A stretch of DNA of 64,000 nt from Candidatus Latescibacterota bacterium (GTDB lineage: Bacteria > Latescibacterota > UBA2968 > UBA8231). The notes beneath the pieces are model-generated. The model was not told the DNA's origin. It saw nothing but the letters and a program-made list of their open reading frames with translations, and made no database searches. Of the stretch, positions 7,828 to 43,778 are shown piece after piece. The stretch covers positions 119,797 through 183,796 of the forward strand of contig JAPYRN010000004.1 of the NCBI GenBank assembly GCA_029941565.1. The letters are read 5' to 3'. The position numbers were made by a program, and so were the translations under genes. Numbering within the stretch: position 1 is the first letter of the stretch; each line of letters opens with the position of its first letter.

Positions 7828-8454
7828 ATGAACCGCAATGACATTCTCACCCACGCCTGTGAACTCTACCTGCAGGGCGGCATCGAGGCTGTGTCGATGC
7901 GCCGCCTAGCGCGGGACCTCGGTGTAACTGCACCGGCGTTGTACAAGCACTACGGCAATCGCGAAGAGATGTTGCTCGATGTTGTCAGTGAGGCCTATCG
8001 CCTATGCGGTGAGCACCTCACGGGCGCGTTGTCGGGCCGCACGCCACGCGAGCGTTTCCGCATGGCAGGCGAGGGTTATCTCGACTTCGCCTTGAAACAC
8101 CCCAAGTTTTATGAAATGATGTACGCACCAGCCCACACGCTGGGGGTGAAAATCTTCCCGGACGTGGTGACGGCGCGTATGGCCGGCGTCGGCCAGTTTT
8201 TTAATGATCGCGTGCGCGAATGTATCGACGCGGGGTTACTGCAGCCCCTCGACGCGCAGGAGGTCTCCCTGACGCTTTGGGCACACGCTCATGGTTTGAT
8301 CTCCATCTACCTGCGGGGCTGTCTGCATATGGACGAGGAAGTTTTCAGATCGGTGTACTTCGAATCGGGTTGGCGTGTCATTCACGGCATGGCGACACCG
8401 CAGTATGAAGCGGAAAAGGAGCTGGAGGATATGGCGGAGGGTGCATCAGGATGA
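7828..8454 (+). CDS. TetR/AcrR family transcriptional regulator
   Basis: N-terminal HTH ILTHACELYLQGGIEAVSMRRLARDLGVTAPALYKHYGNREEM. 208 aa. Immediately upstream of an efflux operon. Confidence 0.85.
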   Translation: MNRNDILTHACELYLQGGIEAVSMRRLARDLGVTAPALYKHYGNREEMLLDVVSEAYRLCGEHLTGALSGRTPRERFRMAGEGYLDFALKHPKFYEMMYAPAHTLGVKIFPDVVTARMAGVGQFFNDRVRECIDAGLLQPLDAQEVSLTLWAHAHGLISIYLRGCLHMDEEVFRSVYFESGWRVIHGMATPQYEAEKELEDMAEGASG

Positions 8455-10960: not shown

Positions 10961-10963
10961 GCG

Positions 10964-15709: not shown

Positions 15710-17785
15710 ATGGACAGAATGGTCAGGATCTACTCTATCATCGGCATGTGTCTCGCCGCCGTCGTCCTGGCGCACGCCGATCCCGGGCCGGGGGACATCT
15801 TCCGCGAGTACCTCTGGCGCGGACCGTATGTTAATGCGGGCAACTGGCAACGCGTAACCCACCCCGGTGCGACAGCCGCCGGTTCTCACGAGTTCCTGCC
15901 CAATCCCGTCAACAGCATCACCATCGACGATCTTACGGGGGCCGTCGGCGCCGAGGTCTACCTCGAGATCTGGGGTGGCCACGCCGGCACCAGTGACAAG
16001 ACCGTGCGCCTCAATGGCTACGACTGGATCCAGATCCCCGAACCCGTCGCCATTCCCGCTACCTCCGGCAGTCCCCGTATCAGCAGCGCCGAGTGTTACC
16101 AGCACTTCGCCTATCCCTCCGTCAAGGTCCCACTGAGCGACCTGCTGGTCGGCGACAATGAATTTGAGTTTTCCGCTGGTCCGCAGATCTGCTTCAACTT
16201 CGGCTGGAGCCAGTGGGGGGTCTACGGTGCTGCCTTCCGTATCTATTACAGTGAGGACAAACCCCACCCAATGGGACGCATCATCCATCCCGCGCCTGGC
16301 AGCACTTTCGGTGACTCCCTATATCTGGAGGCAGAGGCTTCCAGTCCCAATGGTGCCGTTGATCGGGTCGATTTTATCGGCAACTATGAAGACTTTAACT
16401 TCGAAGGCAATGGTCTCTACCACCAGTGGCACTATCGCTACCGATATGGTGTCATGCAGAATCAGCTCGGTACGGCGATGCAAGCACCCTATGCCGCCAT
16501 TTGGCCCACCACCTGGGTGCCAGATCAACCGGGTCCCGTGAAGATCATGGCGCGTCTCACCGACGAGTCCGGTCTCAGCTATATGACTCAACCCGTCGAC
16601 GAGTTGATCCTTGACCGGCCCGGCAAGGCGGTGAAACTGTATAGACCATTTGACGTGCCTGCTTCGTGGCAGACCCGGGTCGGCAGTCGGCAGGGCGCCA
16701 AGCTCTTCATCGGCCACGATCTGGAACGAGCGACGGCGGCGCAAATGATGCTGGTCACCTGGAGTGGGGGACACGCCGACGCCATCGGTATCAACGACTC
16801 CACCGTCGTCAAACGGGTAGGTGGCACCCACGCCTACAGTCTCGACGCCGTCGAGGTGCCCCTCGATCTGCTTCGCAGTGGCACCAACACGACATTCACC
16901 TTCGCCAAAACCATCCACCACGGAATCGAAGTCATGTGGCCCGGTATCGCCCTGATGGTGCAGTACAGCGACCTGCCGGAAGCGGTGTGGCCTCTGGCGG
17001 ATCTACCCGTGTTCGCCGATGATCTGGCCGTCGATTGGCGCTTGGACAAACGGGTCGAGACCGATGTAGAGCTGGCGACGGATCTCGCGTTCACCGGCAA
17101 CGCTTCCCTACGAGTGACGCCAGCACCGGACTACATCTTCTTCCTCGACATGAATGTCACACCACCGGTATCAACAGATGGGTATCACTCACTGCATCTG
17201 GCATTCCTGCCCCAAGGTGTGCAGCTGACGGGACGGCCCGGTTTTGGTCTGTACATCAACAAGAAGTCCCTGAGCCTCGCCGACGTAGCCGTGGAATTGC
17301 AGGGCGAGGACTACCATCTCGATTTCGACGATCACAGCTGGCAAGAGATCGAGATCCCACTCGAGGATCTGGGCTTGCGGTTTCCATACATAGAAACGAT
17401 CCGACTTGCTGGTCAGCTGCAGGGGACGTTCCTGTTGGATGATGTGCGTCTGGTCGCCGAGCAGGGCCCAACAGCCGTCACCGAACAGGCAGCTGAGTCC
17501 CAACCCGCCGACTTCGCCCTGCTACCGAATTATCCCAATCCATTTAATGGTGGTACGACATTCCGTCTTGTTCTGCCGCAAGCAACAGAAGTAGAACTCA
17601 ACGTCTACAATTTGCTCGGCCAGAGGGTGGCCGGCATCCTGCATGGCTCTCTACCGGCGGGTCCACACGAGCAATCGTGGGATGGGCGTGGCGACAACGG
17701 GGATCGGTTGGCGAGTGGGGTGTACTTCTTCCGCCTGCAAGCCGACGACCAGAGCCAGATCCGCAGTTTGGCCGTGCTTCGATGA
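15710..17785 (+). CDS. secreted protein with CBM4_9-like module and T9SS type-A C-terminal sorting domain
   Basis: Signal peptide MCLAAVVLAHA. Penultimate module ends GTFLLDDVRLV (CBM4_9-like signature). C-terminus NYPNPFNGGTTFRLVLPQATEVELNVYNLLGQRV...GVYFFRL matches the Por secretion C-terminal domain. Confidence 0.8.
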   Translation: MDRMVRIYSIIGMCLAAVVLAHADPGPGDIFREYLWRGPYVNAGNWQRVTHPGATAAGSHEFLPNPVNSITIDDLTGAVGAEVYLEIWGGHAGTSDKTVRLNGYDWIQIPEPVAIPATSGSPRISSAECYQHFAYPSVKVPLSDLLVGDNEFEFSAGPQICFNFGWSQWGVYGAAFRIYYSEDKPHPMGRIIHPAPGSTFGDSLYLEAEASSPNGAVDRVDFIGNYEDFNFEGNGLYHQWHYRYRYGVMQNQLGTAMQAPYAAIWPTTWVPDQPGPVKIMARLTDESGLSYMTQPVDELILDRPGKAVKLYRPFDVPASWQTRVGSRQGAKLFIGHDLERATAAQMMLVTWSGGHADAIGINDSTVVKRVGGTHAYSLDAVEVPLDLLRSGTNTTFTFAKTIHHGIEVMWPGIALMVQYSDLPEAVWPLADLPVFADDLAVDWRLDKRVETDVELATDLAFTGNASLRVTPAPDYIFFLDMNVTPPVSTDGYHSLHLAFLPQGVQLTGRPGFGLYINKKSLSLADVAVELQGEDYHLDFDDHSWQEIEIPLEDLGLRFPYIETIRLAGQLQGTFLLDDVRLVAEQGPTAVTEQAAESQPADFALLPNYPNPFNGGTTFRLVLPQATEVELNVYNLLGQRVAGILHGSLPAGPHEQSWDGRGDNGDRLASGVYFFRLQADDQSQIRSLAVLR

Positions 17786-18340: not shown

Positions 18341-20815
18341 CTACTCCAGCTGTTGCAGAAAGTGGGCCGAAGTCAGGTCCGCCGGATTCTGTGCCAGCGC
18401 CTGCAGGTAGGACCGGATGGCCGCCTCCGGGTCACCCCGCATACGGTAGACGTCACCCTCCAACGAATGTTCACCGGCGCGATAACCAGCGGCGAGCCGG
18501 GATGCGATCGCCGTCGGTAGTTCGGACTCACGGACGAGCGTTGTAGCAGGGGTGCGAAACTGCCGCAGCGAGGCCAACACATGCCAGGCCTTCTTGCCGT
18601 ACGACTCAGCGAAACTGATGTAGGGTCGTTCGTCGGTGTTGAGCGGCCCTTCTCCGGTGAAACGGCGCAGCGCTTCTTCATCCATCAGGAAGTGGTCGAA
18701 CAGATGCAAGGGGTCCTTCAGGTCCACCTCCGTCAGGCTGCTGCGAACCGACTCGCGTGTAAAGCGCCGGTCCAGTTGTTCCAGGTCGAGGCGCAGTTCT
18801 CGCTTGGATCCCAACACGACCGAATAGTTGCTGGTGCGCCAGAGTGTGGTGTGGGGGAAGACGTGGACGAAGGTGCGAAGCAAGGTCCGGTAGTCCTCTA
18901 CACCCAGCCCGTGAATGGGCAGCCACTGGGCCATGATCCCGTCTTCGGCCAGACGCAGGCGGCACAGTTGATAGAACTCCTTTGTGTACAACACCCAGCT
19001 GTCAGCGCTGGTGGGGTGGGTGGCATCCCCGGTGATGACGTCGAACGTGTCGTTGTGGGCGAGCAGATAATTGCGACCGTCGTCGATGACGAGTTCCACT
19101 CCGGAGGCGCGCGGATCCTGTAACACGTTGTGGTTGAAGGGGCCGAAGTGTTGCCTGGCGGCGGTGACAACCTGCGGAACGAGTTCGACGCACGTGAGCC
19201 GCTGCAGGTCGTGTTGGGCTACCGAACCCAACGTGATGCCACCGCCGAGGGACACGACCAGGACCTGCTGTGGATCCGGGTGTAACAACAGAGGCAGATG
19301 TCCGAGCAGGCGAAACAGCTGCATCGAGGAGTAGTCGGTGGGCACCTGGCCACCCCCATTGAGCAACATCTCACGGAGTCCGTCCGCCCCCTTCTCGACG
19401 GTGATCACACCCTCGGCCCCCTCCTGATAGAACACGAGGCGTCGTTCTGGATTCGAGGGTTCGGAGACCCTCCTCAATACATCCGCCGGCGCCAACAACA
19501 TCAGGGCGATGACGACAACCACCAGGCCCAAGGCGAAGCGCCTTTGACGCGATCCCATCGTCGGGTGAACGAGGAATATGGCGAGCCCAACGAGGGTGTT
19601 GATAGTGGCCAGTGCTTTGACGCTGGTCTCGGTACCAAACATGGGGATCAGGACAAATCCGGTGAGGAAGGCGCCGGCGGCGGCGCCGAGACTGTTGACC
19701 CCACCTATGGTGCCCATGCCTTCCCCGATGCGCCCAAGGTGACGGATGGTTATCCGGCTCACCAGCGGCAACACAGCGCCCATGAGCAGCGTCGATCCCA
19801 GCATGACGATGAAGGAAACGGCGAAGACACCACCACGATAAGCCCACCAGGCGCCCATCTGGCGCAATTGATCTACGATTGCGGGCAGAGAACCGAGCAC
19901 GGGTAGAGATAACACGCCGAGAATGCCGAGAAGCACCTGGGCGACACCGAACCACGCCAGTGCGTCGATGTCGCGGCGCAACAGGCGGCTGCACAGAAAG
20001 CTGCCCAGTGCGAGACCGACGAGAAAGGCGGCCAGCACCAGGCTGAACTCGTAATGAGACACCATCGAGAAGGCGACACGCACCACCCTCGTCCAGGCCA
20101 CCTCGTAGCCAAGGGCGGCGAAACCCGACAGACCGAAGCCGATGAGGACGACGCGCAGAACCGGATCGGGAGCAGCAGCTGGGAGATCGATTCGCCGGCT
20201 AGACACAACCGGGGTTGCACCCAACCTCCAGGCGACGGTGGCGATGAGAAAGTTGACCATCGCCGCCGCCCAGGTACTGCCCCGGAGTCCGAGTTGCTCC
20301 ATCAACACGAAGGTGACGATGAGGACGCCAAGCACAGCGCCGAGGGTGTTGGCGGCGTAGAGTCTACCGACGCTCACGCCGACGGCACTGTGCTGTTGCA
20401 CCGCGAATCGTGTGACGGCGGGCAGGGTCGCCCCCATCAATACCGTCGGTATCAGCAGCAGCAGGAAACTCAGGCAGAATCTGACGAGGGAGTACAGCGA
20501 ATGACTGCCCTGCAGCGGGAACAACCACGACATGGTATCGTCCAATCCCCCGGCCAGGAGGGGGAACAGGAAGGCATACAGACCGATACCGGCTTCCAGG
20601 AGTGCGAACAGACGAAGTGGGTGGCTGACCCGGTCAACCCAGCGACCGAGTAGGAATGCACCCAGGGCCAACCCGCCCATAAAGGCGCTGAGTACGGTTC
20701 CCACCGCCAGCAAGGTGGTGCCGAAGACGAGGGTGAGCATGCGTGCCCAGGCGACCTGATAGACCAGGCCGCATGCACCGGAGGCAAGTAGCAGCAACAA
20801 CAGCAGAACGGACAC
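18341..20815 (-). CDS. fused MFS-like membrane domain / spermidine synthase-like methyltransferase-fold protein with C-terminal TPR
   Basis: 824 aa. About 12 N-terminal TM helices. Then VLVVSLGGGITLGS...VIDDGRNYL...DVITGDATHP (spermidine/spermine synthase fold). TPR-like tail. Start lies 6 nt after the PPIase-1 stop. Confidence 0.75.
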   Translation of the reverse strand: MSVLLLLLLLASGACGLVYQVAWARMLTLVFGTTLLAVGTVLSAFMGGLALGAFLLGRWVDRVSHPLRLFALLEAGIGLYAFLFPLLAGGLDDTMSWLFPLQGSHSLYSLVRFCLSFLLLLIPTVLMGATLPAVTRFAVQQHSAVGVSVGRLYAANTLGAVLGVLIVTFVLMEQLGLRGSTWAAAMVNFLIATVAWRLGATPVVSSRRIDLPAAAPDPVLRVVLIGFGLSGFAALGYEVAWTRVVRVAFSMVSHYEFSLVLAAFLVGLALGSFLCSRLLRRDIDALAWFGVAQVLLGILGVLSLPVLGSLPAIVDQLRQMGAWWAYRGGVFAVSFIVMLGSTLLMGAVLPLVSRITIRHLGRIGEGMGTIGGVNSLGAAAGAFLTGFVLIPMFGTETSVKALATINTLVGLAIFLVHPTMGSRQRRFALGLVVVVIALMLLAPADVLRRVSEPSNPERRLVFYQEGAEGVITVEKGADGLREMLLNGGGQVPTDYSSMQLFRLLGHLPLLLHPDPQQVLVVSLGGGITLGSVAQHDLQRLTCVELVPQVVTAARQHFGPFNHNVLQDPRASGVELVIDDGRNYLLAHNDTFDVITGDATHPTSADSWVLYTKEFYQLCRLRLAEDGIMAQWLPIHGLGVEDYRTLLRTFVHVFPHTTLWRTSNYSVVLGSKRELRLDLEQLDRRFTRESVRSSLTEVDLKDPLHLFDHFLMDEEALRRFTGEGPLNTDERPYISFAESYGKKAWHVLASLRQFRTPATTLVRESELPTAIASRLAAGYRAGEHSLEGDVYRMRGDPEAAIRSYLQALAQNPADLTSAHFLQQLE

Positions 20816-20821
20816 CGACTC

Positions 20822-22480
20822 CTATCCCCCCAGCAGGTAGTCGGGGACAGCCTCAGCCAGACGCGAGGCATGGATCTGGATCACCGACGCGTGCTCGGCG
20901 CGGAGTCGCTCCAGCATGGTGGACAGGCGTTGCTGCTGCCGGTGTTGACGGAGCAGGGCCTGGGCGCGGTCCCGTACGGCATCGAAGGGATCGACGCGAT
21001 CGGGTGTGTGGCCAAGAACGCGGAACACGGAAAAACCGCCCCGAACCGGTAGTGGACCGACCACAAGGCGGGCTTCCGTCGCCATCGCCACCGGCATCAG
21101 GAGTGGAAATCTTGCCTCATCCTCGGCGTGGAAGTGCAGCCGGCCACGCTGTTGTTCGGCCTGCTCCCGCAGAGATCGGACCGCCAGATCAGCAAGGCGC
21201 GCCCCCGCCTCGATCTGCTCGCGCACGCGCAAGGCCTCGGGCGCCGTGGCCAGCAACGTCTCCTCGATCCACACGGCCTGCGCATGTCGAAAAGGTTCAG
21301 GATTGTCGTCGTAATACTGGCGCACCTCATCCGGGGAGATGCTGATGGCGCGAACCGTCCGCTGTCTCAGCATCTCGAGGATCGCTTCCTGCCGGCCCTT
21401 ATCCTGTACCCGGCGGAACTCGGGACCCTGGTAGAAGCCGGCATCGCGCGCTGCCTCCTGCAGCAAGGCGGGCCGTAGCAGGTGCCGCCGTAACAAGCCG
21501 GAGACCCAACCACTGTCGGCCAATTCGGGCTTGAGTTGCAGACCACGAAGGGCATAGGCGGCACTGCGGACATCGATCTGCCGGGAACCGATCTCGTAGA
21601 GGATCTCCGAACTCGCCAACAGGGGGGAGGGATTGGCGGTACGAATCGCGGCGACGACCAATTCGAAGCCGGGTTCGTGACGTTGCACATCCATCGTTAG
21701 AGACAGTTCGGTCAGCTGCAACTGTTCCTGCTCACGGCGTTGTTGTTGTTCCAGCTGCGTCCTGATCTGTTCGCGGTATCGATCATAATCGGACGGGCGG
21801 TCCTCGACGAAGCGGACCAGTTGCCAGTCCGTGCCGATGCGCAGGGGTGATGAGGTCTGCTCCAGGGGCAATGCGCTGAACAGGGAAGGTGGAATGCCGA
21901 GACGGGCGGCGTGCTCCCGGTTCAGGAATCCGAGTCCTCCGTTCTGCTGCAGCGTGGCGCGATCCAACGAGCGGGACAGGGCGACATCGCCGAAGGGCCG
22001 GTCCTGCAACTCGGCGAGGATTATGTCGATTTCGCCGCGTGTATGGACCCGTATGCCCAATGCCAGGCGCTCGCGGTCAAAGCCTTCGGAATGGAAGGTG
22101 TTCTCGATCTCTGCCTCTGAGATCTGTGGCAGGTTCCGACGCCAATCGGCACGGTACCGGGCCACGACATACTCCTCGACAGCCTTCGTTGCGGCCTGCC
22201 GCACCACCGTAAGGGTGTCCAACCCGAGGGCTTCGCCCTCCAGCAACAGCAGGAGGCGGTCGACCAGCACCTGCAGATGGTGCAGGCGTGCCTCGTCCCC
22301 GGTCTTGTCGGGCTGCCAACGGCCGGGCAGCGCTTCAACATAGGAGCGATACTGAGAGGCCGTGATGTGGTGGGGGCCGACGCGCGCCACCACCTCATCA
22401 TCCGCCCTGTCACAGCCGGCGACGAGGACCGTCATGAGCACGACGCAGAGCAGTGCGACGCGTATGCTCCCACCTCCGAG
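20822..22480 (-). CDS. SurA/PpiD-like peptidyl-prolyl cis-trans isomerase (parvulin type), probable lipoprotein
   Basis: Parvulin motif GGLGFLNREHAARLGIPPSLF...PLRIGTDWQLVRFVEDRP. Paralogous to 41908..43620 (shared C-terminus RLAEAVPDYLLGG vs RLAEAVPDSLVRG). Signal/lipobox LVAGC. True start is uncertain (first ATG 22435; a non-ATG start further upstream is needed for a full signal peptide). The six-frame N-terminal extension overlapping the upstream gene is rejected. Confidence 0.7.
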   Translation of the reverse strand, partial: LGGGSIRVALLCVVLMTVLVAGCDRADDEVVARVGPHHITASQYRSYVEALPGRWQPDKTGDEARLHHLQVLVDRLLLLLEGEALGLDTLTVVRQAATKAVEEYVVARYRADWRRNLPQISEAEIENTFHSEGFDRERLALGIRVHTRGEIDIILAELQDRPFGDVALSRSLDRATLQQNGGLGFLNREHAARLGIPPSLFSALPLEQTSSPLRIGTDWQLVRFVEDRPSDYDRYREQIRTQLEQQQRREQEQLQLTELSLTMDVQRHEPGFELVVAAIRTANPSPLLASSEILYEIGSRQIDVRSAAYALRGLQLKPELADSGWVSGLLRRHLLRPALLQEAARDAGFYQGPEFRRVQDKGRQEAILEMLRQRTVRAISISPDEVRQYYDDNPEPFRHAQAVWIEETLLATAPEALRVREQIEAGARLADLAVRSLREQAEQQRGRLHFHAEDEARFPLLMPVAMATEARLVVGPLPVRGGFSVFRVLGHTPDRVDPFDAVRDRAQALLRQHRQQQRLSTMLERLRAEHASVIQIHASRLAEAVPDYLLGG

Positions 22481-22488
22481 AGGATGGT

Positions 22489-24504
22489 TCACCAGTGCAT
22501 CACCCAATTCTGCGTCGCGCCCGTAAAGTGATCGATCACGTACCAGATGCCAACTGTGACGAATTGACCAAGAATCAGACCCAGGAAGAAGGGGCGGGTG
22601 CTGAGGTAGAGTTGTGGTCCACCATGTTTGAAGACCATGGTCTTGATGAACCAGGCGACGAGAACGCTGAAGAACATAGTGCCGAAGACGGCGCTGATGG
22701 GGAATCCGAGGGGGTGGAAGGGCCACCAGAAGTATCGTTGACGGGCGACCATCAACAATGTCATGACGACGCCACCCATGGCCGTGTAGAGCCAGTTGAG
22801 CATGTGTGGGCCCTGCAGCGATTTCATGCGGGTGCCGGCATTGTCAAAGGCGTAGGTCGCGTCGGGACCGAAAAAATGAGGGGAGGTGTTGATGCCCCCG
22901 TATTGATAGGCCAATTCCAGGATGGCCCAGATCGAACTGCCGAGGGTGACGGCGATGGCGATCAGCATGCCCCAGAAAATCAATCGACGGCTTTTGACTA
23001 CCGTCTCTTCCACCAGCTTGAGACTGTTGGCGCAGGCAGCCATAACAAATGTCAGGATGTCGCTGGCCCAGATGTAGGTGAAAGCGAAAGCGACGACACC
23101 CGACGAACCCAGGGCTCGCGTGCCGAATCCGGCGGCGACGAAGTCGGAGGCAATCATCGGCGCGAAGACGAATGCAAGGCCACCTTCGGCGACCACCCGC
23201 GTGATGCCGATAAAGAGCACAAAGGCGAGAAACAGATAAACCGGCACGATCCAACCCGGCAATCCCGATTGCGCCAGCCAGATGCCCATGAAACTCAGGC
23301 TGCACACAAGAATGATCACGGCGGCTCGATAGGACAGAATCTCGCCGGAATCATCGACATTGGGATCCCCCGAAATCGTTTTGCGCCAGACGTCGTGCAG
23401 ATGCCGGCGCGAGGTCCACAGGCCAAAAAGCACGAGCACGATGATGGCCCCGAACCCCTGATGGACGATGATAGTGCCGGAGTACGAACTGTAGGAGCCG
23501 AGCACGGGATCGGGCTGGTCGATTCCCGTGACGTTGAAGATCCCCTGCTGCACTACGTTGAGCAGGTGGAAGATCCACAGTCCCAGGGCGATTTCGCGAC
23601 TGATGAAGTAGGAGAAGCCGACCATCTGAAAACTGAGTGCGATTTTCAGATTGACGGAGTCGCGAAATAGGGGAATCGTGAAGCCCCCCCAGCTGGCGAT
23701 CTCGGTGGCGGGGATGTAGGGGAAGTAGTAGTTGAGACCATTCATGCTCTGCACGATCGCCGGCATGGCAAAACCGAGCCACATCAACGGGTTCTTGAAG
23801 ATCGGCTTGATCAGCGACGGCCCCGAGGCGTCGTCCTGGATCATGGCCAACGGTACCTGCGCCAGGGGGAATACGAGGCGTTCATTCTGGATCCACTGTT
23901 TGCGCAGGATCACCATGATCGTGATCATCGCCAGATACAGGGCGAAGATGAAGGGAATCCAATAACACAGAGGTCGCAGCCACAGCATCCAGGGGATCCC
24001 CGTGCCCTCCGGGGCGCCCTCGAAGAAGCCCTGGACCTGCTCCACCTCGTGGTGGACGATCATCCAATCCGGGATCACGGGCAGCAGGACTTCGAGCCAC
24101 TGATTTTCCGGTGTAGCGTAATAGATCGGTGTCGTGATATGTGGCAAAAGGAAGGCGGTGAGACCGAACAGTGGGATCGATGTCGACACCGTCCACATGA
24201 CATAAACCAGTGCCAATTCGGCTGGTCGGAGCATCCACGGTCGACGCACGACGCCGATCACGACATTGAGGAAAAAGACAAGAGCGAAGAGCAGGATGAG
24301 CGCCGCGGGATTGTTGAAATAGGCGGCGATATGGGCACCCCGGATCACCATATTGGTGTAGGGTACCAGGACACCAATGGCGGCGGAGCCCACGGTGCCG
24401 ACAAGCAGCGCGGCGGGTCGAATCTTGAGGGCGGATTGTTGGATTTGGCTCAAAACTACGGATCGGCTTCCCGTCGGGCTCGAGATGGGGATGAACCGGA
24501 GCAT
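22489..24504 (-). CDS. large polytopic membrane protein of unknown family (paralog A)
   Basis: About 670 aa, more than 12 predicted TM helices. Clear paralog of 45208..47199 (ERLVFPLAQVPLAM vs ERLPFPLASVPLEL; TRPFFLGLILGQFVTVGIWYVIDHFTG vs TKPFFLGLVMGQLVVGGVWLVIDSMTG). Start set at MLRFIP by alignment with the paralog. Confidence 0.7.
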   Translation of the reverse strand: MLRFIPISSPTGSRSVVLSQIQQSALKIRPAALLVGTVGSAAIGVLVPYTNMVIRGAHIAAYFNNPAALILLFALVFFLNVVIGVVRRPWMLRPAELALVYVMWTVSTSIPLFGLTAFLLPHITTPIYYATPENQWLEVLLPVIPDWMIVHHEVEQVQGFFEGAPEGTGIPWMLWLRPLCYWIPFIFALYLAMITIMVILRKQWIQNERLVFPLAQVPLAMIQDDASGPSLIKPIFKNPLMWLGFAMPAIVQSMNGLNYYFPYIPATEIASWGGFTIPLFRDSVNLKIALSFQMVGFSYFISREIALGLWIFHLLNVVQQGIFNVTGIDQPDPVLGSYSSYSGTIIVHQGFGAIIVLVLFGLWTSRRHLHDVWRKTISGDPNVDDSGEILSYRAAVIILVCSLSFMGIWLAQSGLPGWIVPVYLFLAFVLFIGITRVVAEGGLAFVFAPMIASDFVAAGFGTRALGSSGVVAFAFTYIWASDILTFVMAACANSLKLVEETVVKSRRLIFWGMLIAIAVTLGSSIWAILELAYQYGGINTSPHFFGPDATYAFDNAGTRMKSLQGPHMLNWLYTAMGGVVMTLLMVARQRYFWWPFHPLGFPISAVFGTMFFSVLVAWFIKTMVFKHGGPQLYLSTRPFFLGLILGQFVTVGIWYVIDHFTGATQNWVMHW

Positions 24505-24547: not shown

Positions 24548-24576
24548 TTGACAACCGCCACGGAGCACGTTATCGT
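24548..24576 (+). promoter_or_regulatory. sigma70-like promoter TTGACA-N17-TATCGT for the lipoprotein gene
   Basis: TTGACA at 24548-24553 and TATCGT at 24571-24576. AAGGAA RBS 6 nt before GTG 24606. Confidence 0.35.
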
Positions 24577-24605: not shown

Positions 24606-25358
24606 GTGACCCATCTCAAGGCCTTCATCTACCTCCGAGTGTTGCTGTGTGCCGCCATTCTGACGGTGTTGTTGTCGACAGGTTGCGGGTATCTCCACTA
24701 TGCGGGCCCCCTGCGACCACAGACAGAACAACCCGAAGCGATGGTGGTCGCCGATGACGGCAGTGTCACCTATGAGAAAAACCGCTTCGAGGTAAAGTTA
24801 CGGCCCCTCTCCGATGCCGAACTCAACCGGCAGTTCGCAACCGAGTCTCAGCAGGGCACAAAGTCGACGAATCCCTTCACCTATGGTGACACCGAATTCA
24901 AGGACAAGGAGCGGCAGCGTTTCATCGTCTTCGCCTTGAGTGTCAAAAACTACGCCTATCCGAAAGTTCGTATCGATCCGGGCAGAATTGTGCTTCAGGC
25001 GAGCAATGGCCGCGAGTACTGGAGTCTCACGGAACGGCAGATCGACACCTACTATCGCGTCTACGCCATCGGCTATGCCGGCAACGCCTATATCCAATAC
25101 AAAAACCGTCTCGATCTGGTGAAGCGCACTTTGTTCAGGAACGAAGACATATTCTCTGGCCAGGAGTCGGAAGGGTTTGTCGTATTCCCTGTATTACATC
25201 ACGACGTAAGTCAGATCGAAGCGATCGTACAGGATGCCGTCGTTCGTTTCGACTACCGGGACGAACCGGTGGAAACGATGGACATCGGCTACCAGTTTGA
25301 GCGCGATGTCGGCCGCCGCTACCGTGACGGCAGCGTCGAACTGACCGCACAACACTGA
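24606..25358 (+). CDS. hypothetical lipoprotein
   Basis: GTG start. Signal plus lipobox LLSTGCG. 250 aa, somewhat lower GC than its neighbours. No family recognised. Confidence 0.55.
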   Translation: MTHLKAFIYLRVLLCAAILTVLLSTGCGYLHYAGPLRPQTEQPEAMVVADDGSVTYEKNRFEVKLRPLSDAELNRQFATESQQGTKSTNPFTYGDTEFKDKERQRFIVFALSVKNYAYPKVRIDPGRIVLQASNGREYWSLTERQIDTYYRVYAIGYAGNAYIQYKNRLDLVKRTLFRNEDIFSGQESEGFVVFPVLHHDVSQIEAIVQDAVVRFDYRDEPVETMDIGYQFERDVGRRYRDGSVELTAQH

Positions 25359-25411: not shown

Positions 25412-28276
25412 TTGCTGCTGACGGTGGGATGGGGTTGCGCAGACAATCCGCATCCGTCCGAACTGCAGTTCTCCGACCTGAGTACTGAGGTTGGCCTCGA
25501 CTTCACCCACGTCTCCGGAACACCCCAGCAACATCTTATCATCGAGTCAATGGGAGGGGGTGCGGCCTTTCTTGACTACGACGGGGACGACTACCTCGAT
25601 CTCTTCATCGTCAACGGCACCAGGATCGCTGACCCGCCCCCAGGGACAAGCAATCGCCTGTTCCGCAATATTCCAGCAGACGACACGCAAGGGCGAAGAT
25701 TCGACGAGGTCACAGTCGAAGCGGGTCTGCAACTGACCGGTTGGGGCATGGGAGCGGCTGCTGGTGATACCGACAACGATGGCAATGTTGATCTCTTCGT
25801 GACGTATCTGGGTCCCAACGTGCTCTATCGCAACGATGGGTTGGGTGCGTTTGATGACGTTACCGAGGAAGTCGGCGTCGGCGACCCACGTTGGGGCAGT
25901 AGCGCCGCCTTCGGCGATCTCGACGCCGATGGCGATCTCGACCTTTACGTCGCCAACTACCTACTCTTCGACCCCCAATTCCCGCCAAACGATGGCAAGC
26001 CATGCAGCGGCTGGAAAGGCCTCGATGTATTCTGCGGTCCCCACGGCCTGCAGGCGCAGGCGGATGTCCTTTACCGCAACGACGGGGTGCACGGCTTCGT
26101 CGACGTCAGCGAGGCCACGGGTGTAAGCGACCATCAGCATCCCGCTCTTGGCGTGTTATGGGCGGATCTGGATGGTGATGGTGACCAGGATCTGTATGTG
26201 GCCAACGACTCGAAGCCGAACTTGCTGTTCCGTAACGACGGCGATTGGTCTCTTACCGAAATCGCCACTTTCGCCGGCGCCGCCTACAGTGAAGATGGGC
26301 GCTCCCAGGCCGGCATGGGTGTTGCCTCCGGTGATTACGACCGGGATGGCGATCTGGATCTGTATGTGACCAACTTCTCTGATGACGTCAACACGCTGTA
26401 CCAGAACAAGGGCAATGGCACCTTCACCGACGCGACCTTCGACGCGAGTCTGGGGGGCGAGGCACGACCCTACCTTGGGTGGGGTACGGCATTGTTCGAC
26501 GCTGATAACGACGGCTGGCTGGATCTGTTCGTCGCCAACGGCCACCTCTATCCGCAGCTCATGACACACGCCTCAGGACTGCGTTACGCCCAGCACAACC
26601 TGCTCTACCGCAACATCGATGGCAGATTCGCGCTGCAGCGACAACTGTCCCGCCTGGGGGGTGAGCAGGTCAGTCGTGGAACCGCGGTCGGCGACTACGA
26701 CAACGACGGTGATCTGGATCTGCTGGTGATGAATCTGAATGCTGCCCCAACCTTTTTGCGCAACGAAGCAGGAGATCGTAACAACTGGCTCGGCCTGCAA
26801 CTGGTGGGAGGTACGAGCAACCAGGATGGGCTCGGTTCACGTGTGCAACTGTTCGCCAATGGCGAGTCCCAGATCCGCGAAGTGCAACGGAGTTACGGCT
26901 ACCAATCAGCCCACGATGGTCGCGTATTGTTTGGGCTTGGCGCCACAGAACAGGTGGACCGTGTGGAGATCCGCTGGCCGAGTGGCGCTCTGCAGATTCT
27001 GCAGAAGCCCGAGACGCGGCGGTATCTGGTCGTGCACGAGGATGGCGCTGTCGTTGACGAATACGCAGAGCCTCCGTCAAGCTCGCTGGCGCGCCCTGTA
27101 CCCGTCGCCGGGGCCATCGTCGAGTCGCTGGAAGACCATACAGCCAAGATCCCGTCTGGAACGGCTCTGGAATATTACGAAGAGGGTGTCAGGTATTACA
27201 ACCTCGGGAGGTATGAGGAGGCCCTCGCTGCCCTGCACCAGGCGCTGCTTCTGCAGCCCGAGTACGACGATGCCGGATACACGATGGGCCTGGTGCTCTA
27301 CTCAGGCTTGGGACGAGACGAGGAGGCCGCCGCGCAGTTGGAGCAGGTGGCGGCACGGGACTCACAGCGGGTAGACGTGCGGGATCTGCTCGGGGCGACG
27401 TATCTGAGTCTCAACCTGCCGGCGCCGGCCATCGATGTGTTGCTCAAGGCGACGGCACTACAACCGGACTCATGGCAAATCCACCATCGTCTGGGGACGG
27501 CGTATGCCCGCGCCGAGCGCATGGTTTTGGCACAAAAGGCATTTGGCGAGGCCAGCCGTCTCGCCCCGTACAAACCACAACCGCACCTGAATCTAGCCCG
27601 CATCTACGAAGCCACCGGTAACGTGCTGGGGGCAAAAGCAGAGCGGAGGCTGTTCGAACGCTGGGCCCCCGTGGAGGACCGTGTCTCCCACTATGAGCAG
27701 GAGATTGCGCAATATCCCGCCTCCCTCGAAGGACATAATCTTCTCGGCCAAGCCTACATGAAACAGGGCAGGTTGGCGCTGGCAGTTGCCCGCTTTCAGC
27801 GGGCGGTGGAACTGGACTCCTCTTTTGCACCCGCCTACTACGGCGTTGGCGCCGTCATGCATCTGCGCGGTGATCTGCGTCGAGCGATTCTGGCGTATGA
27901 GAAGGCGGTGCAACTGCAGCCGCACCTGGTGCTGGCACTCGCCGATCTGGGCCAGGCCTACCATCAAGTGGGACAGCTGGATGCGGCGATTGACGCATTG
28001 CACCGAGCCCTCATGCTACGCCCGGACCTGTCCATCACCTGGAGTAAGTTGGGCCAGATGTACGCGGCGTCAGATCGCTGGTCGGAGGCGATTCACGCCT
28101 ACCAGATGGCCCTGCAGCACGATTCAACACTGGTCGCTACACGCAATGCTCTCGGTGGAGCCTATGCCACCGAGGGGCAGCTGGACGCCGCGATTGAACA
28201 ATGGCGCGAGGTTCTGAGAATCGCGCCTCAGGATTCCAATGCCGCTCGCCTCATTCGTATGGCGGAGCGACAATAA
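25412..28276 (+). CDS. CRTAC1-family (FG-GAP/ASPIC-UnbV) protein with C-terminal TPR repeats
   Basis: Repeated FG-GAP/VCBS motifs (DYDGDDYLDLFIVNG, DTDNDGNVDLFVTY, DLDADGDLDLYVANY and others), then about eight TPR repeats. Start uncertain (TTG at 25412, and the frame is open upstream). Confidence 0.75.
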   Translation: MLLTVGWGCADNPHPSELQFSDLSTEVGLDFTHVSGTPQQHLIIESMGGGAAFLDYDGDDYLDLFIVNGTRIADPPPGTSNRLFRNIPADDTQGRRFDEVTVEAGLQLTGWGMGAAAGDTDNDGNVDLFVTYLGPNVLYRNDGLGAFDDVTEEVGVGDPRWGSSAAFGDLDADGDLDLYVANYLLFDPQFPPNDGKPCSGWKGLDVFCGPHGLQAQADVLYRNDGVHGFVDVSEATGVSDHQHPALGVLWADLDGDGDQDLYVANDSKPNLLFRNDGDWSLTEIATFAGAAYSEDGRSQAGMGVASGDYDRDGDLDLYVTNFSDDVNTLYQNKGNGTFTDATFDASLGGEARPYLGWGTALFDADNDGWLDLFVANGHLYPQLMTHASGLRYAQHNLLYRNIDGRFALQRQLSRLGGEQVSRGTAVGDYDNDGDLDLLVMNLNAAPTFLRNEAGDRNNWLGLQLVGGTSNQDGLGSRVQLFANGESQIREVQRSYGYQSAHDGRVLFGLGATEQVDRVEIRWPSGALQILQKPETRRYLVVHEDGAVVDEYAEPPSSSLARPVPVAGAIVESLEDHTAKIPSGTALEYYEEGVRYYNLGRYEEALAALHQALLLQPEYDDAGYTMGLVLYSGLGRDEEAAAQLEQVAARDSQRVDVRDLLGATYLSLNLPAPAIDVLLKATALQPDSWQIHHRLGTAYARAERMVLAQKAFGEASRLAPYKPQPHLNLARIYEATGNVLGAKAERRLFERWAPVEDRVSHYEQEIAQYPASLEGHNLLGQAYMKQGRLALAVARFQRAVELDSSFAPAYYGVGAVMHLRGDLRRAILAYEKAVQLQPHLVLALADLGQAYHQVGQLDAAIDALHRALMLRPDLSITWSKLGQMYAASDRWSEAIHAYQMALQHDSTLVATRNALGGAYATEGQLDAAIEQWREVLRIAPQDSNAARLIRMAERQ

Positions 28277-28346: not shown

Positions 28347-29240
28347 TTACTCTACGAATCCTGCCTTGATGGCGCCCCACGTCGTGCCTTCAACCGCCGT
28401 GCCACCCTCGCCCAGATTCGGATCGAGAGGTGCCGCGACAAAGTCGGTAACGGACGTGTTCGATGATTCAGCCGTAAAGGTCCAGAAGCCCTGGTAATCG
28501 TTGGCGTTGTCGATGTCGCCCATGGCGATCGAGATATGGATCACATCGTTCTCTTCCAGATCCATGAAATCGGTGTTCTCAGGCGTGGCATTTTCCCGGG
28601 GCAGGGCCCAGATGGGAATCACCGACAACTCGTAGAAATAGGTGCTCTCGCCAAACTGCTCACCCGTGAAAGACCAGCCGAACTGCACGTACTCGGTGCC
28701 GTCCTGCAGCCATTCGAGATCGCCGATGGGCTCGAGGGACTGATAGATACCACCTACAGGAGGAACGACCCATTTGTAGAAGAAGTCGTTGATGGGAATA
28801 TCATCGACATTGCGGCTATGCTCTTCAGACGGAGTATGGTCAGGGTTTACGCCGACCTCCCAGTTGTCATCGTTCCAATGCCGTGCTGGATCCTCGCGGT
28901 CCGTGTTATGGATATTGTCGAAGATCTCGGTGGCAAAGTAGATCTTGTTCTGACTGTCGTTCCAGCCCAACCGGTGACGAACGTTGACATCGCTTGGATC
29001 GAATTCGCCCCGACCTGCCGCCTGAAACTGGGCGGGGTCGAACAACTTGTCGCTGCGTACCGTGTAGGGATTGTCCGGAACAATATTCCAGTCGCTGTGG
29101 TCGCCGTCGACCGTCGGGACCCGATCATCTGGGAACTGGACCAGGAAGAACAACTCTCCTGGTGGGTCATGGGCGGCTGCCAGCGAAGGCAGGCTTAGGA
29201 CTAGTGCTAAGACGAAAAGAACACTCCATTTACCTCTCAT
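28347..29240 (-). CDS. secreted CBM9/DOMON-like carbohydrate-binding protein
   Basis: Signal peptide. Segment RVPTVDGDHSDWNIVPDNPYTV...KIYFATEIFDNIHNTD resembles the family-9 carbohydrate-binding domain. Confidence 0.5.
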   Translation of the reverse strand: MRGKWSVLFVLALVLSLPSLAAAHDPPGELFFLVQFPDDRVPTVDGDHSDWNIVPDNPYTVRSDKLFDPAQFQAAGRGEFDPSDVNVRHRLGWNDSQNKIYFATEIFDNIHNTDREDPARHWNDDNWEVGVNPDHTPSEEHSRNVDDIPINDFFYKWVVPPVGGIYQSLEPIGDLEWLQDGTEYVQFGWSFTGEQFGESTYFYELSVIPIWALPRENATPENTDFMDLEENDVIHISIAMGDIDNANDYQGFWTFTAESSNTSVTDFVAAPLDPNLGEGGTAVEGTTWGAIKAGFVE

Positions 29241-29448: not shown

Positions 29449-31572
29449 TCAATATGCAATCGACACGGTACCGAGTTGCAACTCAGCCTCCCCGGTGCCA
29501 AGAAAGAGCCGATATATATAGGTCCCCGGAGGCACCGGTACACCATCAAGCCCCATGCCGTCCCACCGTTGCTGGCCAACGCCGCTGCGAGCCTCGATCA
29601 TTGCGCCAATTCCAACCTGTCTGCCGGCGAGATCAAAAATCTGCAGACTGACGGGTCGATCGATGGTCACCTGTAACAGCCGGTAATCGAGGATGAGTTC
29701 GTCGTTGATGCCATCACCGTTGGGGGTAAATGGATTCGAACTGACCTCGACGTCGATCAGCAGGTCACCACCTATGGGAGTTCGTACGGACAGATCGTCC
29801 CCTGAAAAACGGAATGTCGCATTGCCCGGGCTGATCTGCTGACGGATGCTGTCCGGATCATCGCTATTAAAGACCCAGCCGGTGAATTTGGTCCCATACC
29901 GCAACACGGCCGCATCAAACTGGACCTCGAGTCGTACCAGATTGTCCTCGACGCCCTCGACTTTGGGAAAGGACAGCAGCAGGCGGTCCTCGTGGATCTC
30001 TGGTGTGTAGGTGATCGGGTCGAGTTCCACGCCCTCAAGAAGCACGGAGCGAACCGTGTCGGCCCGGGTATGGGTGAGAATCTCAAGACGGTCGAAACCA
30101 GCGTTGTCCCTGTCCATGATCGGCTGCACGACATAGGTAAACGTCTCGGATTCGAAAGAGGCAACCTCGACAGGCCAGATTTCGCCGACGATCTGACTGG
30201 CAGCGGGGGTTTCGCCGATCTGTAATGACAGACTCTGCAGACTCGGCGCCCGGTCGAATGTGGACAACAGTTTGAAGGAGATCTGCAGATAGCGGCTGGG
30301 GCCTGGAGACAGTGTCGCGGTGCCATCCTTCCAGTCAGCAGCGGACAGCGTGTCGTCCTTCAGGCCCGCAGCGAAGTCGTATGGCGGCGACCAGAAACTC
30401 CAATTCTCCGAGTCATACCTGGTGGAGATGTTCGACGCCGACGACAGCAGCAGTTGGTTATATGTCTTGGCATCGACAGGCAGGACATCACCATTGAGAT
30501 TGCCGGCGAAGTAGAGGGTGGGATCGTCGGTCCGGCCGGTGCGTGTGCGTATCTCAAGGTGAGTGCCCTCAGGCTGCTCCCCTTCCCAGCGAATCTTGCC
30601 CCAATTGACGGGTTTGCCGAAATCGAGGATCTGGGTCTGGTAGAACGCCTCCTCAACGAAGCCATTCGCATACACTTCAAACTCGGCGAATTCCCACTGC
30701 CGTAGTGGAAAGGCCTTGAAGGTGAGCCATCGAATCGAACGATTAGGGAAGGATAGATCGACGACGACGTCGATGTTTTCGCTGCTGGCCTGCAACTCGT
30801 CGAGCAAGGGATCTCGATCGACGATCCAACGCAGGTTGGTCGCTGTCAACTGAGATCCCGTGCCGCCGCCGCATGGTCCGCCGCTGAAGCGTACGTCCTT
30901 GCCCCCGGTTCGCACATCGTACCAGGCGACGAAATTATCGGCGAAGCTCTCCTCGCCAAACCTTTCGGGTCGGGGTTCAGACAGACCATCGATCAACAGC
31001 TGATCATCACCCGTACCCAGGCGTGGAAAGAAACGGACGCGGTTGACGGGGACCTCGGAGCCAAAATCGAGGATGATCGTGCGCCGCCAACCGCTGCCAT
31101 TACCCGGCAATAAGTTCGGATTCTGCCGGAACAGCCGAAAAAGGGCAGTCGAGGCGTTGCCATCGAACATCTGTTTGATCGTCGGCTGCTGCTGTGGCCA
31201 ACAGATGCAGCAATCGTTGGACAACACCCGTCCCCCCGTCTGCGGCAGAGGGATGTCCTTTTCCGCGGAGGCTGGATCGGTGAGGGCAATATTGGTTTCG
31301 GGATCGAAAAACCGTGGACTCAGTGTATTGTCGGAGAAGTCGACGAGGGTATCGGTTCCCACCGTGCGCGCCGAGACGCCGACAGCAACCGTCCGCAGTA
31401 CGTTGCCGGCGCGGTCGTAGACGACGTAACTTCCAGCATCCTCCTCGGAGAGGGCTGCTTGCCAGGGGTTTCCATCTGCGCCACCGAGACGATACTCAGT
31501 CGCCGCCCATACGGATGGTGCGATACCAAGGAGTATGTAAGTGATGCAAAAACGCAATTGCCAGCGTACCAT
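29449..31572 (-). CDS. large secreted protein with F5/8-type-C-like domain and T9SS type-B (CHU_C/gliding-motility) C-terminal domain
   Basis: Start at ATG 31572 (MVRWQLRFCITYILLGIAPSVWA signal). EFEVYANGF discoidin-like strand. C-terminus NPFTPNGDGINDELILDY...PGTYIYRLFLG. Paralog of 31656..33764. Confidence 0.75.
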   Translation of the reverse strand: MVRWQLRFCITYILLGIAPSVWAATEYRLGGADGNPWQAALSEEDAGSYVVYDRAGNVLRTVAVGVSARTVGTDTLVDFSDNTLSPRFFDPETNIALTDPASAEKDIPLPQTGGRVLSNDCCICWPQQQPTIKQMFDGNASTALFRLFRQNPNLLPGNGSGWRRTIILDFGSEVPVNRVRFFPRLGTGDDQLLIDGLSEPRPERFGEESFADNFVAWYDVRTGGKDVRFSGGPCGGGTGSQLTATNLRWIVDRDPLLDELQASSENIDVVVDLSFPNRSIRWLTFKAFPLRQWEFAEFEVYANGFVEEAFYQTQILDFGKPVNWGKIRWEGEQPEGTHLEIRTRTGRTDDPTLYFAGNLNGDVLPVDAKTYNQLLLSSASNISTRYDSENWSFWSPPYDFAAGLKDDTLSAADWKDGTATLSPGPSRYLQISFKLLSTFDRAPSLQSLSLQIGETPAASQIVGEIWPVEVASFESETFTYVVQPIMDRDNAGFDRLEILTHTRADTVRSVLLEGVELDPITYTPEIHEDRLLLSFPKVEGVEDNLVRLEVQFDAAVLRYGTKFTGWVFNSDDPDSIRQQISPGNATFRFSGDDLSVRTPIGGDLLIDVEVSSNPFTPNGDGINDELILDYRLLQVTIDRPVSLQIFDLAGRQVGIGAMIEARSGVGQQRWDGMGLDGVPVPPGTYIYRLFLGTGEAELQLGTVSIAY

Positions 31573-31655
31573 GGTTTTCCCCCCGTAGCGGTTAGTATAT
31601 ATTATGAAACAGTTCCCACACAGACAATCCATTTAGGCCGATTCTGACTTCTCGG

Positions 31656-43620: not shown

Positions 43621-43778
43621 AGCTGGTCGGCTAGAATAATTTCGCTCAATTCGGGCCCTAATATAGATGAGCATGAATGGTTGTCACAAGCCGGTTGCCT
43701 TGCTGGAACTTACACCACTCTGATACTTTGCACCGTGTCGTCAAACGGTGTGGATTTCTGACAAACAAGAAGGCAAAG

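Follow-up and report, generated by a model that had tools for sequence, protein, structure and literature searches.

The clients of the SurA, PEB4 and PrsA chaperones are secreted and outer-membrane proteins, and to our knowledge none of the three acts on polytopic inner-membrane proteins. In the polysaccharide utilization loci of Bacteroidota, surface glycan-binding proteins, an outer-membrane barrel, degradative enzymes (sulfatase, β-helix) and an inner-membrane importer are co-encoded, an arrangement that the locus described below resembles (albeit by analogy only). A further point of reference is the OPT/YSL superfamily of transporters (TC 2.A.67, PF03169), the characterized members of which are solute importers (PMC9691689, PMC3061005). 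OPT proteins have 16–17 TMS in two internally duplicated halves (PMC3061005), the OPT/YSL core contains an inverted repeat, and the fold of HvYS1, a proton symporter of the OPT family, is otherwise unique (PMC9691689).

The window analysed here (a stretch of 64,000 nucleotides from a Candidatus Latescibacterota bacterium, contig JAPYRN010000004.1) encodes two polytopic membrane proteins and two SurA-like lipoproteins (referred to as PPIases), at the positions given for them in the original prediction. Membrane protein A (671 aa) is encoded at 22489..24504 on the minus strand and membrane protein B (663 aa) at 45208..47199 on the plus strand, while PPIase A (20822..22492) and PPIase B (41908..43620, 570 aa) are both encoded on the minus strand. 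BLASTP aligned the two membrane proteins with 40% identity over 647 columns (E 1e-151) and the two PPIases with 38% identity over 545 columns (E 4e-118); as judged from these alignments, the similarity within both pairs lies far beyond chance, which bears out the paralogy that had been proposed. The conserved blocks on which that proposal was based are all present, with small substitutions: in the membrane proteins ERLVFPLAQVPL / ERLPFPLASVPL, SYRAAVI / SYRSAVI, LMVARQRYFWWPFHPLGF / LMVARHHFVGWPLHPLGF (where copy A has Y in place of F) and RPFFLGL / KPFFLGL, and in both chaperones RLAEAVPD. Since closer relatives of each copy were found in other genomes, and the identity between the membrane proteins is only 40%, A and B are old paralogues, and a recent tandem duplication is ruled out.

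Only in copy A are the membrane protein and PPIase genes adjacent. The adjacency had been correctly noted, but not the gap of up to 60 nt between the two genes, as PPIase A most plausibly starts at a GTG (22492) that overlaps the TGA stop of the membrane protein gene as 'GTGA' and provides a full signal peptide and lipobox (…LVAG-C). Given this stop/start overlap, the two genes are probably coupled in translation, and PPIase A is probably co-transcribed with the membrane protein A gene. The third gene of operon A (18341..20815, minus strand) starts 6 nt past the PPIase A stop and encodes an 824-aa membrane protein in which an MFS/spermidine-synthase-like fusion is followed by a TPR region at the C terminus (NCBIfam MFS_SpdSyn, 128 bits; Pfam Spermine_synth and TPR); the gene order of this operon is identical in another locus of 91% identity (L013). 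Copy B is arranged divergently: PPIase B heads its own minus-strand operon, and the plus-strand membrane protein gene lies 1.6 kb off, with a sulfatase gene (43677..45188, plus strand; Pfam Sulfatase, 174 bits) standing between them and ending 19 nt before it. The pairing originally suggested for both copies thus holds for copy A, with its adjacent and co-directional genes, but not for copy B, where the partners are split by the sulfatase and occupy opposite strands.

The membrane protein, originally considered to belong to no known family, has a Pfam assignment. Both copies match DUF6785 (416.4 bits for A and 375.1 bits for B; cutoff 25) and DUF6784 (88.4 and 106.5 bits; cutoff 26.4), and so do all 48 of 48 aligned relatives. 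The family comprises 7,025 representative clusters (E≤1e-3; clusters taken at 50% identity), with several DUF6785 paralogues in each of the Latescibacterota genomes, and a literature search found no paper naming either DUF6785 or DUF6784. The earlier view that the protein is not a GT-C enzyme was upheld, as no GT-C Pfam model was matched by either copy or by the 48 relatives, and a fold search returned no significant match to a solved GT-C structure. A GT-C or OST identity of the membrane paralogues is ruled out by the Pfam and fold evidence.

The predicted structure points to a different relationship. The AF2 model of the membrane protein is confident (pLDDT 89.2, pTM 0.91) and matches the fold of the OPT/YSL transporter HvYS1, the only significant solved-structure match in the fold search, so that the assignment stands on a predicted model and one solved relative. 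The membrane protein is similar in length to OPT/YSL proteins (∼600–700 aa), and its model shows roughly 16 long helices (about 16–18 helices of at least 13 residues by DSSP, to be compared with the 16–17 TMS of OPT proteins; a crude hydropathy scan gave 11–12 segments only). On the other hand, the sequence identity is only 10–13%. The Pfam OPT model (PF03169) did not match either paralogue at E≤0.01 or any of the 48 family members at E≤10, a family profile run against PDB sequences at E≤10 found neither HvYS1 nor any other solved transporter, and an NCBIfam search returned no known transporter family. Comparison of the N-half and C-half profiles by hhalign (probability 0.1%, E 0.63) gave no sequence-level repeat signal. 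On structural evidence, DUF6785/DUF6784 would represent a branch of the OPT/YSL superfamily that is not recognizable by sequence and is classified apart from OPT in Pfam, as DUF6785 plus DUF6784. At the fold level, the membrane paralogues in this way match a characterized transporter family, one of the two findings that the original prediction had named as counting against it. Such a placement would offer a testable mechanism (elevator-type proton symport) for a large family, multi-copy in the genomes of an uncultivated phylum, and would widen a superfamily with a single solved structure.

The second protein was correctly recognized as a parvulin lipoprotein of the SurA/PrsA/PEB4 type. Pfam Rotamase_2 and Rotamase match both PPIase A (35 bits with a cutoff of 27, and 21.7 bits, exactly at cutoff) and PPIase B (81.6 and 39.6 bits, the former again with a cutoff of 27); SurA_N_3 remains below cutoff (19.7 vs 27.2 bits), and all NCBIfam matches are far under theirs. 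The family profile matches the OMP chaperones PEB4 (3e-18) and SurA (1.5e-12) and the foldase PrsA (5e-16), as well as HP0175. Profile positions 33–227 align with residues 2–204 of PEB4, which cover its helical N-domain and parvulin domain, and a second unit aligns at positions 353–553; the chaperone, about 550 aa long, is by this alignment predicted to consist of two tandem PrsA/PEB4/SurA-like units. All 15 of 15 family members keep the lipobox Cys at the end of their hydrophobic N-terminal segment (the lipobox of PPIase A reads …VALLCVVLMTVLVAG-C), so the chaperone is predicted to be exported and lipoprotein-anchored, as PrsA is. It shares the parvulin and helical chaperone domains with Campylobacter PEB4/Cbf2, HP0175, PrsA and SurA, and differs from them in its tandem architecture and in a conserved family-specific C-terminal motif, A-[LV]-P-D-S-L. 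A further difference, from active parvulins, is seen in parvulin domain 1, where the family consensus reads 'tAILVqt' opposite the 'kHILVat' of PEB4 and PrsA; the second His is kept ('wHlvr' vs 'yHvi' in the profile alignment), but the replacement of the first catalytic His makes isomerase activity doubtful. The chaperone family, too, is present in several copies per genome.

The linkage of the two genes was surveyed in 79 transporter-centred loci (8-kb radius) and 19 chaperone-centred metagenome loci, with genes called using a codon-position GC filter; most of these loci belong to a single phylum, with several of them nearly identical (L081/L082, L083/L089, L084–L086). Of the 79 transporter-centred loci, 14 have a homologue of the chaperone at most 8 kb from the transporter and the remaining 65 showed none within that distance, while the transporter directly adjoins the chaperone in 10 of the 19 chaperone-centred loci. 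No DUF6785 was found in L081/L082 and L091 despite 6–10 kb of flank around the chaperone. In the 14 linked loci the two genes are always co-directional and either no more than 85 nt apart or separated by one gene; three gene orders are seen for this linkage, which is shared by two transporter clades. It is real, conserved but partial: the pairing foreseen in the original prediction does recur in other genomes, albeit in a minority of the transporter loci.

These data bear on the original proposal of a dedicated machine built around the membrane protein, the lipoprotein being its own chaperone or periplasmic subunit, perhaps a docked substrate-binding or gating partner. The GTGA overlap in the window is a tight gene coupling that would fit a direct partnership, as would the short-gap, co-directional adjacency seen across many lineages with either gene first, its retention in two transporter clades, and the conserved C-terminus of the chaperone as a possible docking peptide. 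We nevertheless regard such a machine as unlikely, in view of the 65 transporter loci without a chaperone, the chaperone loci without a transporter and the preference of SurA, PEB4 and PrsA for clients other than polytopic inner-membrane proteins. In fact, the most constant neighbour of the chaperone is an FG-GAP protein, present in 14 of the 19 chaperone-centred loci.

The steadiest neighbours of the chaperone are this FG-GAP protein, secreted proteins with T9SS-type tails and a predicted outer-membrane β-barrel. They belong to a wider module, in which the chaperone is always found, which also includes a GT-C/TPR protein and a CBM9-like protein, and all members of which are present in the window between 20.8 and 47.2 kb. 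The chaperone–transporter link is one part of this larger conserved cell-envelope gene cluster in Latescibacterota. Next to operon A, a divergent gene (24606..25358, plus strand) encodes a putative 250-aa lipoprotein for which neither a Pfam or NCBIfam family nor, among the 79 genome loci, a homologue was found. It is followed by genes for an FG-GAP/ASPIC-UnbV and TPR protein (25412..28276, plus strand; Pfam; cluster c3), a secreted 297-aa protein with a signal peptide (28347..29240, minus strand; cluster c6, recurring in 12 of 79 loci) that is weakly CBM9-like (CBM9_1 E 0.0018, under the Pfam cutoff), and two large secreted proteins (29449..31632, minus strand, and 31656..33764, plus strand) with T9SS-type CHU_C/FlgD_ig C-terminal tails recognized by Pfam. 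The latter two fall into cluster c1, found in 29 of 79 loci; as this single-linkage cluster is held together largely by the common tail, it stands for T9SS-tailed secreted proteins in general rather than for a single orthologous family.

Operon B has the order PPIase B – c1 – c2 – GT-C, all on the minus strand. Its c1 member (38754..41855, with the start mapped at 41855) is a secreted protein of 1033 aa in which Pfam recognizes an F5/8 type C (discoidin) domain and a CHU_C tail. The c2 product (36061..38733) is an 890-aa secreted protein without a Pfam family, for which a structure model of moderate confidence (pLDDT 65) predicts an outer-membrane β-barrel; this barrel family has at least 1,200 relatives. 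The last gene (33779..36034; cluster c20) encodes a GT-C (PMT_2) membrane glycosyltransferase with TPRs (PMT_2 46 bits, many TPR families) and ∼10 hydrophobic segments. In the opposite direction, the sulfatase and membrane protein B genes are followed, 8 nt past the stop of the latter, by a gene for a right-handed β-helix protein (47208..48422, plus strand; Pfam Beta_helix, 40.6 bits). This operon and the recurrent neighbours of DUF6785 in other loci (sulfatase, FGE-sulfatase, amidohydrolase, GHL10, GDSL, GFO/IDH/MocA, aldo-keto reductase and M28 peptidase) are consistent with an uptake role.

The contexts of DUF6785 are heterogeneous. In a Gemmatimonadota-labelled clade the DUF6785 gene comes first in an operon that also encodes an ABC ATPase, two HlyD-type adaptors and a MacB_PCD/FtsX permease, another clade adjoins an M28-MacB_PCD-FtsX protein, and DUF6785-MacB fusion proteins exist. 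This association, which could reflect export or recycling roles, sets some DUF6785 members apart from OPT/YSL proteins, for which we know of no description of a MacB-type fusion or operon. MacAB-type tripartite ABC pumps, neighbours of other DUF6785 clades, are absent beside both window copies.

The reading that we favour, and consider reasonably probable, is that the membrane proteins are remote OPT-fold inner-membrane importers inside a Latescibacterota envelope module, with the chaperone serving the barrel and the secreted proteins. The DUF6785 proteins would be elevator-type, proton-coupled importers, as the known OPT/YSL members are, moving small solutes (peptides, chelates or sugar-derived breakdown products) across the inner membrane. 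In Latescibacterota and close relatives they would make up the cytoplasmic-membrane end of a conserved module that spans the envelope, and the other parts of which would be the novel ∼890-aa outer-membrane β-barrel, T9SS-tailed surface proteins with discoidin or CBM-like domains, the FG-GAP/ASPIC-TPR protein, the GT-C/TPR glycosyltransferase and the membrane-anchored SurA/PrsA/PEB4-like lipoprotein. The likeliest clients of the chaperone would be the co-encoded barrel and secreted proteins rather than the transporter, as SurA-type chaperones usually serve proteins of these kinds.

The same gene content could be taken to indicate surface glycosylation or assembly, in which the OPT-fold protein would deliver a precursor, lipid-linked or soluble, to the co-encoded GT-C/TPR enzyme decorating the T9SS-tailed proteins, while the chaperone would keep the cargoes export-competent. 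The recurrence of GT-C (PMT_2)/TPR and T9SS-tailed proteins in the module agrees with this idea, and the T9SS translocon complex is known to include a PPIase subunit (PDB 8gl8 description). We find it quite doubtful, as characterized OPT/YSL proteins import solutes, the GT-C gene is present in only 8 of 79 DUF6785 loci, and many DUF6785 paralogues adjoin catabolic enzymes instead. An arrangement devoid of functional coupling, inherited among close Latescibacterota in a region dense in expanded paralogous families, would suit the multi-copy nature of both families and the phylum-restricted, partly near-identical set of loci, but it is very improbable given the three gene orders (each of them co-directional and closely spaced), the linkage in two deep transporter clades of only 40% mutual identity, and the 14 of 79 loci in which the genes lie within 8 kb, a share well above the few percent that by our estimate would be expected even if a 6-Mb genome had ten copies of the chaperone.

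Under the favoured reading of OPT-fold importers in an envelope module, the likeness to Bacteroidota polysaccharide utilization loci has clear limits. The window genes scanned with Pfam gave no hit to a SusC/TonB-dependent receptor or to SusD; in contrast to the SusC/SusD systems, the barrel belongs to no known family, the predicted fold of the importer is that of OPT rather than MFS proteins, and the module includes a SurA-like lipoprotein and a GT-C enzyme. The module ties the transporter to an unannotated outer-membrane β-barrel family and a specialized SurA-like lipoprotein, and provides a defined starting point for work on the uptake, or construction, of envelope-associated material in Latescibacterota. 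A bolder proposal, which we put forward tentatively and would not ourselves expect to hold, is an envelope-spanning acquisition or surface-assembly system of Latescibacterota and related bacteria, new to science, in which the lipoprotein would form a physical bridge between the barrel and the OPT-fold transporter, and the whole of DUF6785 would handle a new OPT substrate class (e.g. sulfated or oxidized sugar fragments, in place of peptides or metal chelates). The components of such a system would be the 890-aa barrel, the T9SS-tailed discoidin/CBM proteins, the FG-GAP/ASPIC-TPR protein, the GT-C/TPR enzyme, the tandem PrsA/PEB4-like lipoprotein and the DUF6785 transporter.

The two open reading frames of copy A named in the original prediction are present in the window, with membrane gene A at 22489..24504 on the minus strand and the downstream parvulin gene ending at 20822, as are their paralogues, membrane gene B (45208..47199, plus strand) and PPIase B (41908..43620, minus strand). 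The membrane proteins share 40% identity over 647 columns (E 1e-151) and the chaperones 38% over 545 columns (E 4e-118); the membrane-protein motifs quoted earlier recur with conservative substitutions, and RLAEAVPD is the C-terminal end of both chaperones. The claim that the genes are paired in both copies holds for copy A, where they adjoin, but not for copy B, where they lie on opposite strands with a sulfatase gene between them. Overall, the observation is confirmed, and its interpretation (a dedicated membrane machine with its own chaperone) is supported in part.

Reading of the copy A junction revealed an in-frame GTG (22492) for PPIase A that shares bases with the membrane gene's TGA stop codon (GTGA), and from which translation yields a proper signal peptide with a terminal lipobox (…VALLCVVLMTVLVAG/C). 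The two genes are thus probably translationally coupled. The later ATG at 22435 is the less plausible start, as its leader would be only 7 residues long. The third gene of copy A, starting 6 nt past the PPIase A stop, encodes a fused MFS/spermidine-synthase-like membrane protein with a C-terminal TPR (18341..20815, minus strand; NCBIfam MFS_SpdSyn); it is co-transcribed behind PPIase A, in a gene order common to the 91%-identical locus L013. A 250-aa putative lipoprotein (24606..25358, plus strand), divergent from membrane gene A, has neither a Pfam/NCBIfam match nor a homologue in the set of 79 related loci from genomes; close to its gene, at 24548..24576, there is a sigma-70-like promoter match. 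In copy B, PPIase B is the first gene of a minus-strand operon (PPIase, a 1033-aa discoidin/T9SS-tail protein, an 890-aa protein and a GT-C/TPR enzyme), and the plus-strand row runs from the sulfatase through membrane protein B to a β-helix protein, its genes lying 19 and 8 nt apart.

The assertion that the membrane protein belongs to no known family did not stand, as both paralogues match Pfam DUF6785 (416 bits for A, 375 bits for B) and DUF6784 (88 and 106 bits, respectively). The NCBIfam scan of the paralogues gave no match, and no mention of DUF6785 or DUF6784 was found in the literature searched. A profile of 48 relatives, run against 1.84 billion proteins, retrieved 7,025 cluster representatives at E<=1e-3, 2,378 of them still at E<=1e-30. 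A scan of genomes yielded at least 575 relatives; single Latescibacterota chromosomes carry several DUF6785 loci, with two or three copies in 17 loci. A confident AlphaFold2 model based on the 48-relative alignment (pLDDT 89.2, pTM 0.91) had a sole Foldseek match among solved structures, the barley iron-phytosiderophore transporter Yellow Stripe 1 (HvYS1; E 1.1e-6, probability 1.00, TM 0.61/0.67), the runner-up being at E 0.05 and TM ~0.1. At the sequence level, Pfam OPT matched none of the 48 DUF6785 members at E<=10, the family profile search did not find HvYS1, and no profile-level internal repeat signal was detected. Across the family, the acidic residues E96, E208 (in ERLxFPL), E440 (in AEGG), D454 and D482 are invariant. 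Because the model matches HvYS1 while sequence methods see no relationship, we place the family, on structural grounds, as a distant branch within the OPT/YSL superfamily, with membership not demonstrated by sequence criteria. With a family and a recognisable transporter fold assigned to the membrane protein, the finding is less strange than it first seemed. At moderate confidence, both membrane proteins are most likely inner-membrane OPT-fold secondary importers.

To survey the linkage, 79 DUF6785-centred loci were fetched, their genes called with a codon-position GC filter and the neighbours clustered. A chaperone homologue occurs within 8 kb of the transporter in 14 of these loci, always on the same strand, and in none of the other 65. 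In the linked loci it either directly adjoins the transporter (gap <=85 nt, in either order) or is separated from it by one gene for a T9SS-tailed protein. In a neighbour-joining tree the chaperone-linked loci form two separate clades, one with copy A and one with copy B, and clades without a chaperone fall between them. A set not biased by the transporter was obtained by scanning metagenome contigs with the chaperone alignment, and the resulting 19 loci were searched with a profile of each neighbour cluster. DUF6785 lies immediately next to the chaperone gene, in the same direction, in 10 of the 19 and is clearly absent from L081/L082 and L091 (6-10 kb of flank searched); flanks of the rest were too short to judge. 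The anticipated linkage in other genomes was thus recovered from both sides; it is genuine and has withstood rearrangement. Not every transporter has it, however, and the chaperone does not require it, given the transporter loci devoid of a chaperone and the chaperone loci devoid of DUF6785. A direct partnership of the two proteins, to be weighed between this close spacing and this frequent separation, seems unlikely.

The steadiest chaperone neighbour is an FG-GAP/ASPIC protein, adjoining in 14 of the 19 chaperone-centred loci. Long chaperone loci also hold T9SS-tailed proteins (c1), the ~890-aa protein c2, the GT-C/TPR enzyme and a ~300-aa CBM9-like protein (c6), and at least one gene of this wider module is present in 40 of the 79 transporter loci. 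The window holds the whole module (20.8 to 47.2 kb) in the order PPIase A, transporter A, lipoprotein, FG-GAP protein, c6, two c1 genes (together in sixth place), GT-C, c2, c1, PPIase B, sulfatase and transporter B. A role beside the GT-C enzyme in glycosylation or assembly, which this company would allow and which has the transporter fold on the opposite side of the scale, is slightly less probable than the direct partnership. The secreted 890-aa c2 protein (36061..38733, minus strand) has at least 1,207 relatives and is predicted by modelling to be a large outer-membrane β-barrel. Its family is highly conserved, with identities of 54-83% in the top 120, where no Pfam domain occurs. The c2 model contains a low-confidence insert (~residues 520-610) rich in invariant Asp/Asn (for example DNDDQDRFPD…WDENNDFISDFNQNDN…PDYEEPF) and reminiscent of a calcium-binding repeat region.

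Parvulin domains were detected by Pfam in the chaperone, for which the NCBIfam PrsA-, EpsD-, PpiD- and SurA-type models are all sub-threshold. A 15-member profile matched PEB4/Cbf2 (3e-18), PrsA (5e-16), SurA (1.5e-12) and also HP0175; since its N-terminal (positions 33-276) and C-terminal (353-553) halves align separately, the protein has the appearance of a tandem of two PrsA/PEB4-like units. All 15 aligned members keep the lipobox Cys. In the profile alignments, parvulin domain 1 has another residue at the position of the first catalytic His, which may point to chaperone rather than isomerase activity. A C-terminal motif, L-x-x-A-[LV]-P-D-[SY]-L-[LV], is conserved in 15/15 homologues and could be a docking peptide.

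SurA and PEB4 assist outer-membrane proteins. In the reading we prefer, the importers would stand at the cytoplasmic-membrane end of an envelope module, with the c2 barrel and surface proteins as its outer parts; that barrel and the secreted proteins would be the most plausible clients of the periplasmically anchored lipoprotein chaperone. The T9SS translocon, too, has a PPIase among its known components (PDB 8gl8 description). Mere co-inheritance of the transporter and chaperone genes, set against a linkage that outlasts rearrangement, is improbable. Three things come to light all the same: an OPT-like family not yet characterised, a conserved envelope module, and a large family of predicted barrels that lacks annotation.

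Other contexts of DUF6785 include tandem copies next to sulfatase, FGE-sulfatase, amidohydrolase, PhyH, GFO/IDH/MocA and aldo-keto reductase genes, and these catabolic neighbours fit an import role. Association with MacB-type proteins might reflect export or recycling. DUF6785 heads an operon followed by a 215-aa protein, an ABC ATPase, two HlyD-type adaptors and a MacB_PCD/FtsX permease (L027:3351-11306, L028:7833-15143, L030:8001-15331) in a clade of MAGs labelled Gemmatimonadota or Planctomycetota, and a MacB-type permease (MacB_PCD/FtsX) is fused to DUF6785/DUF6784 in two representative proteins (P0243, 2120 aa; P0345, 1035 aa). In 13-14 Latescibacterota loci, NusG_II, a HepI-like protein and DUF6785 precede a 1,640-aa M28-MacB_PCD-FtsX protein (L034-L046 etc., ~9.8-14.8 kb). 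Downstream of DUF6785, the clade closest to copy A has a conserved set of three genes, encoding a DUF4175 protein (~1,090 aa), a TPR protein (~311 aa) and a ~459-aa protein (L003, L005, L006, L011 and L019, at ~9.9-17 kb; L004, L007, L067).

The best relatives are named Candidatus Latescibacterota, and the window G+C is 60%. Many window proteins end in CHU_C/FlgD_ig tails, and large secreted proteins with C-terminal domains of the CHU_C, FlgD_ig or Por_Secre_tail type are unusually dense, lying at 15710..17785, 29449..33764, 38754..41855, 48391..50355 and 51678..55598. This density suggests that the source organism relies heavily on a T9SS-like sorting signal. The 654-aa secreted protein at 48391..50355 (plus strand), with several CxxCH motifs, an N-terminal CarboxypepD_reg domain, a FlgD_ig tail and weak MtrC/MtrF-like and cytochrome c554 matches, may be a multihaem surface cytochrome. 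The window also contains a glutamate synthase large subunit (106..4737) and a complete RND efflux operon (7828..14332, plus strand) comprising TetR, an outer-membrane factor, an HlyD adaptor and an AcrB-type RND protein.
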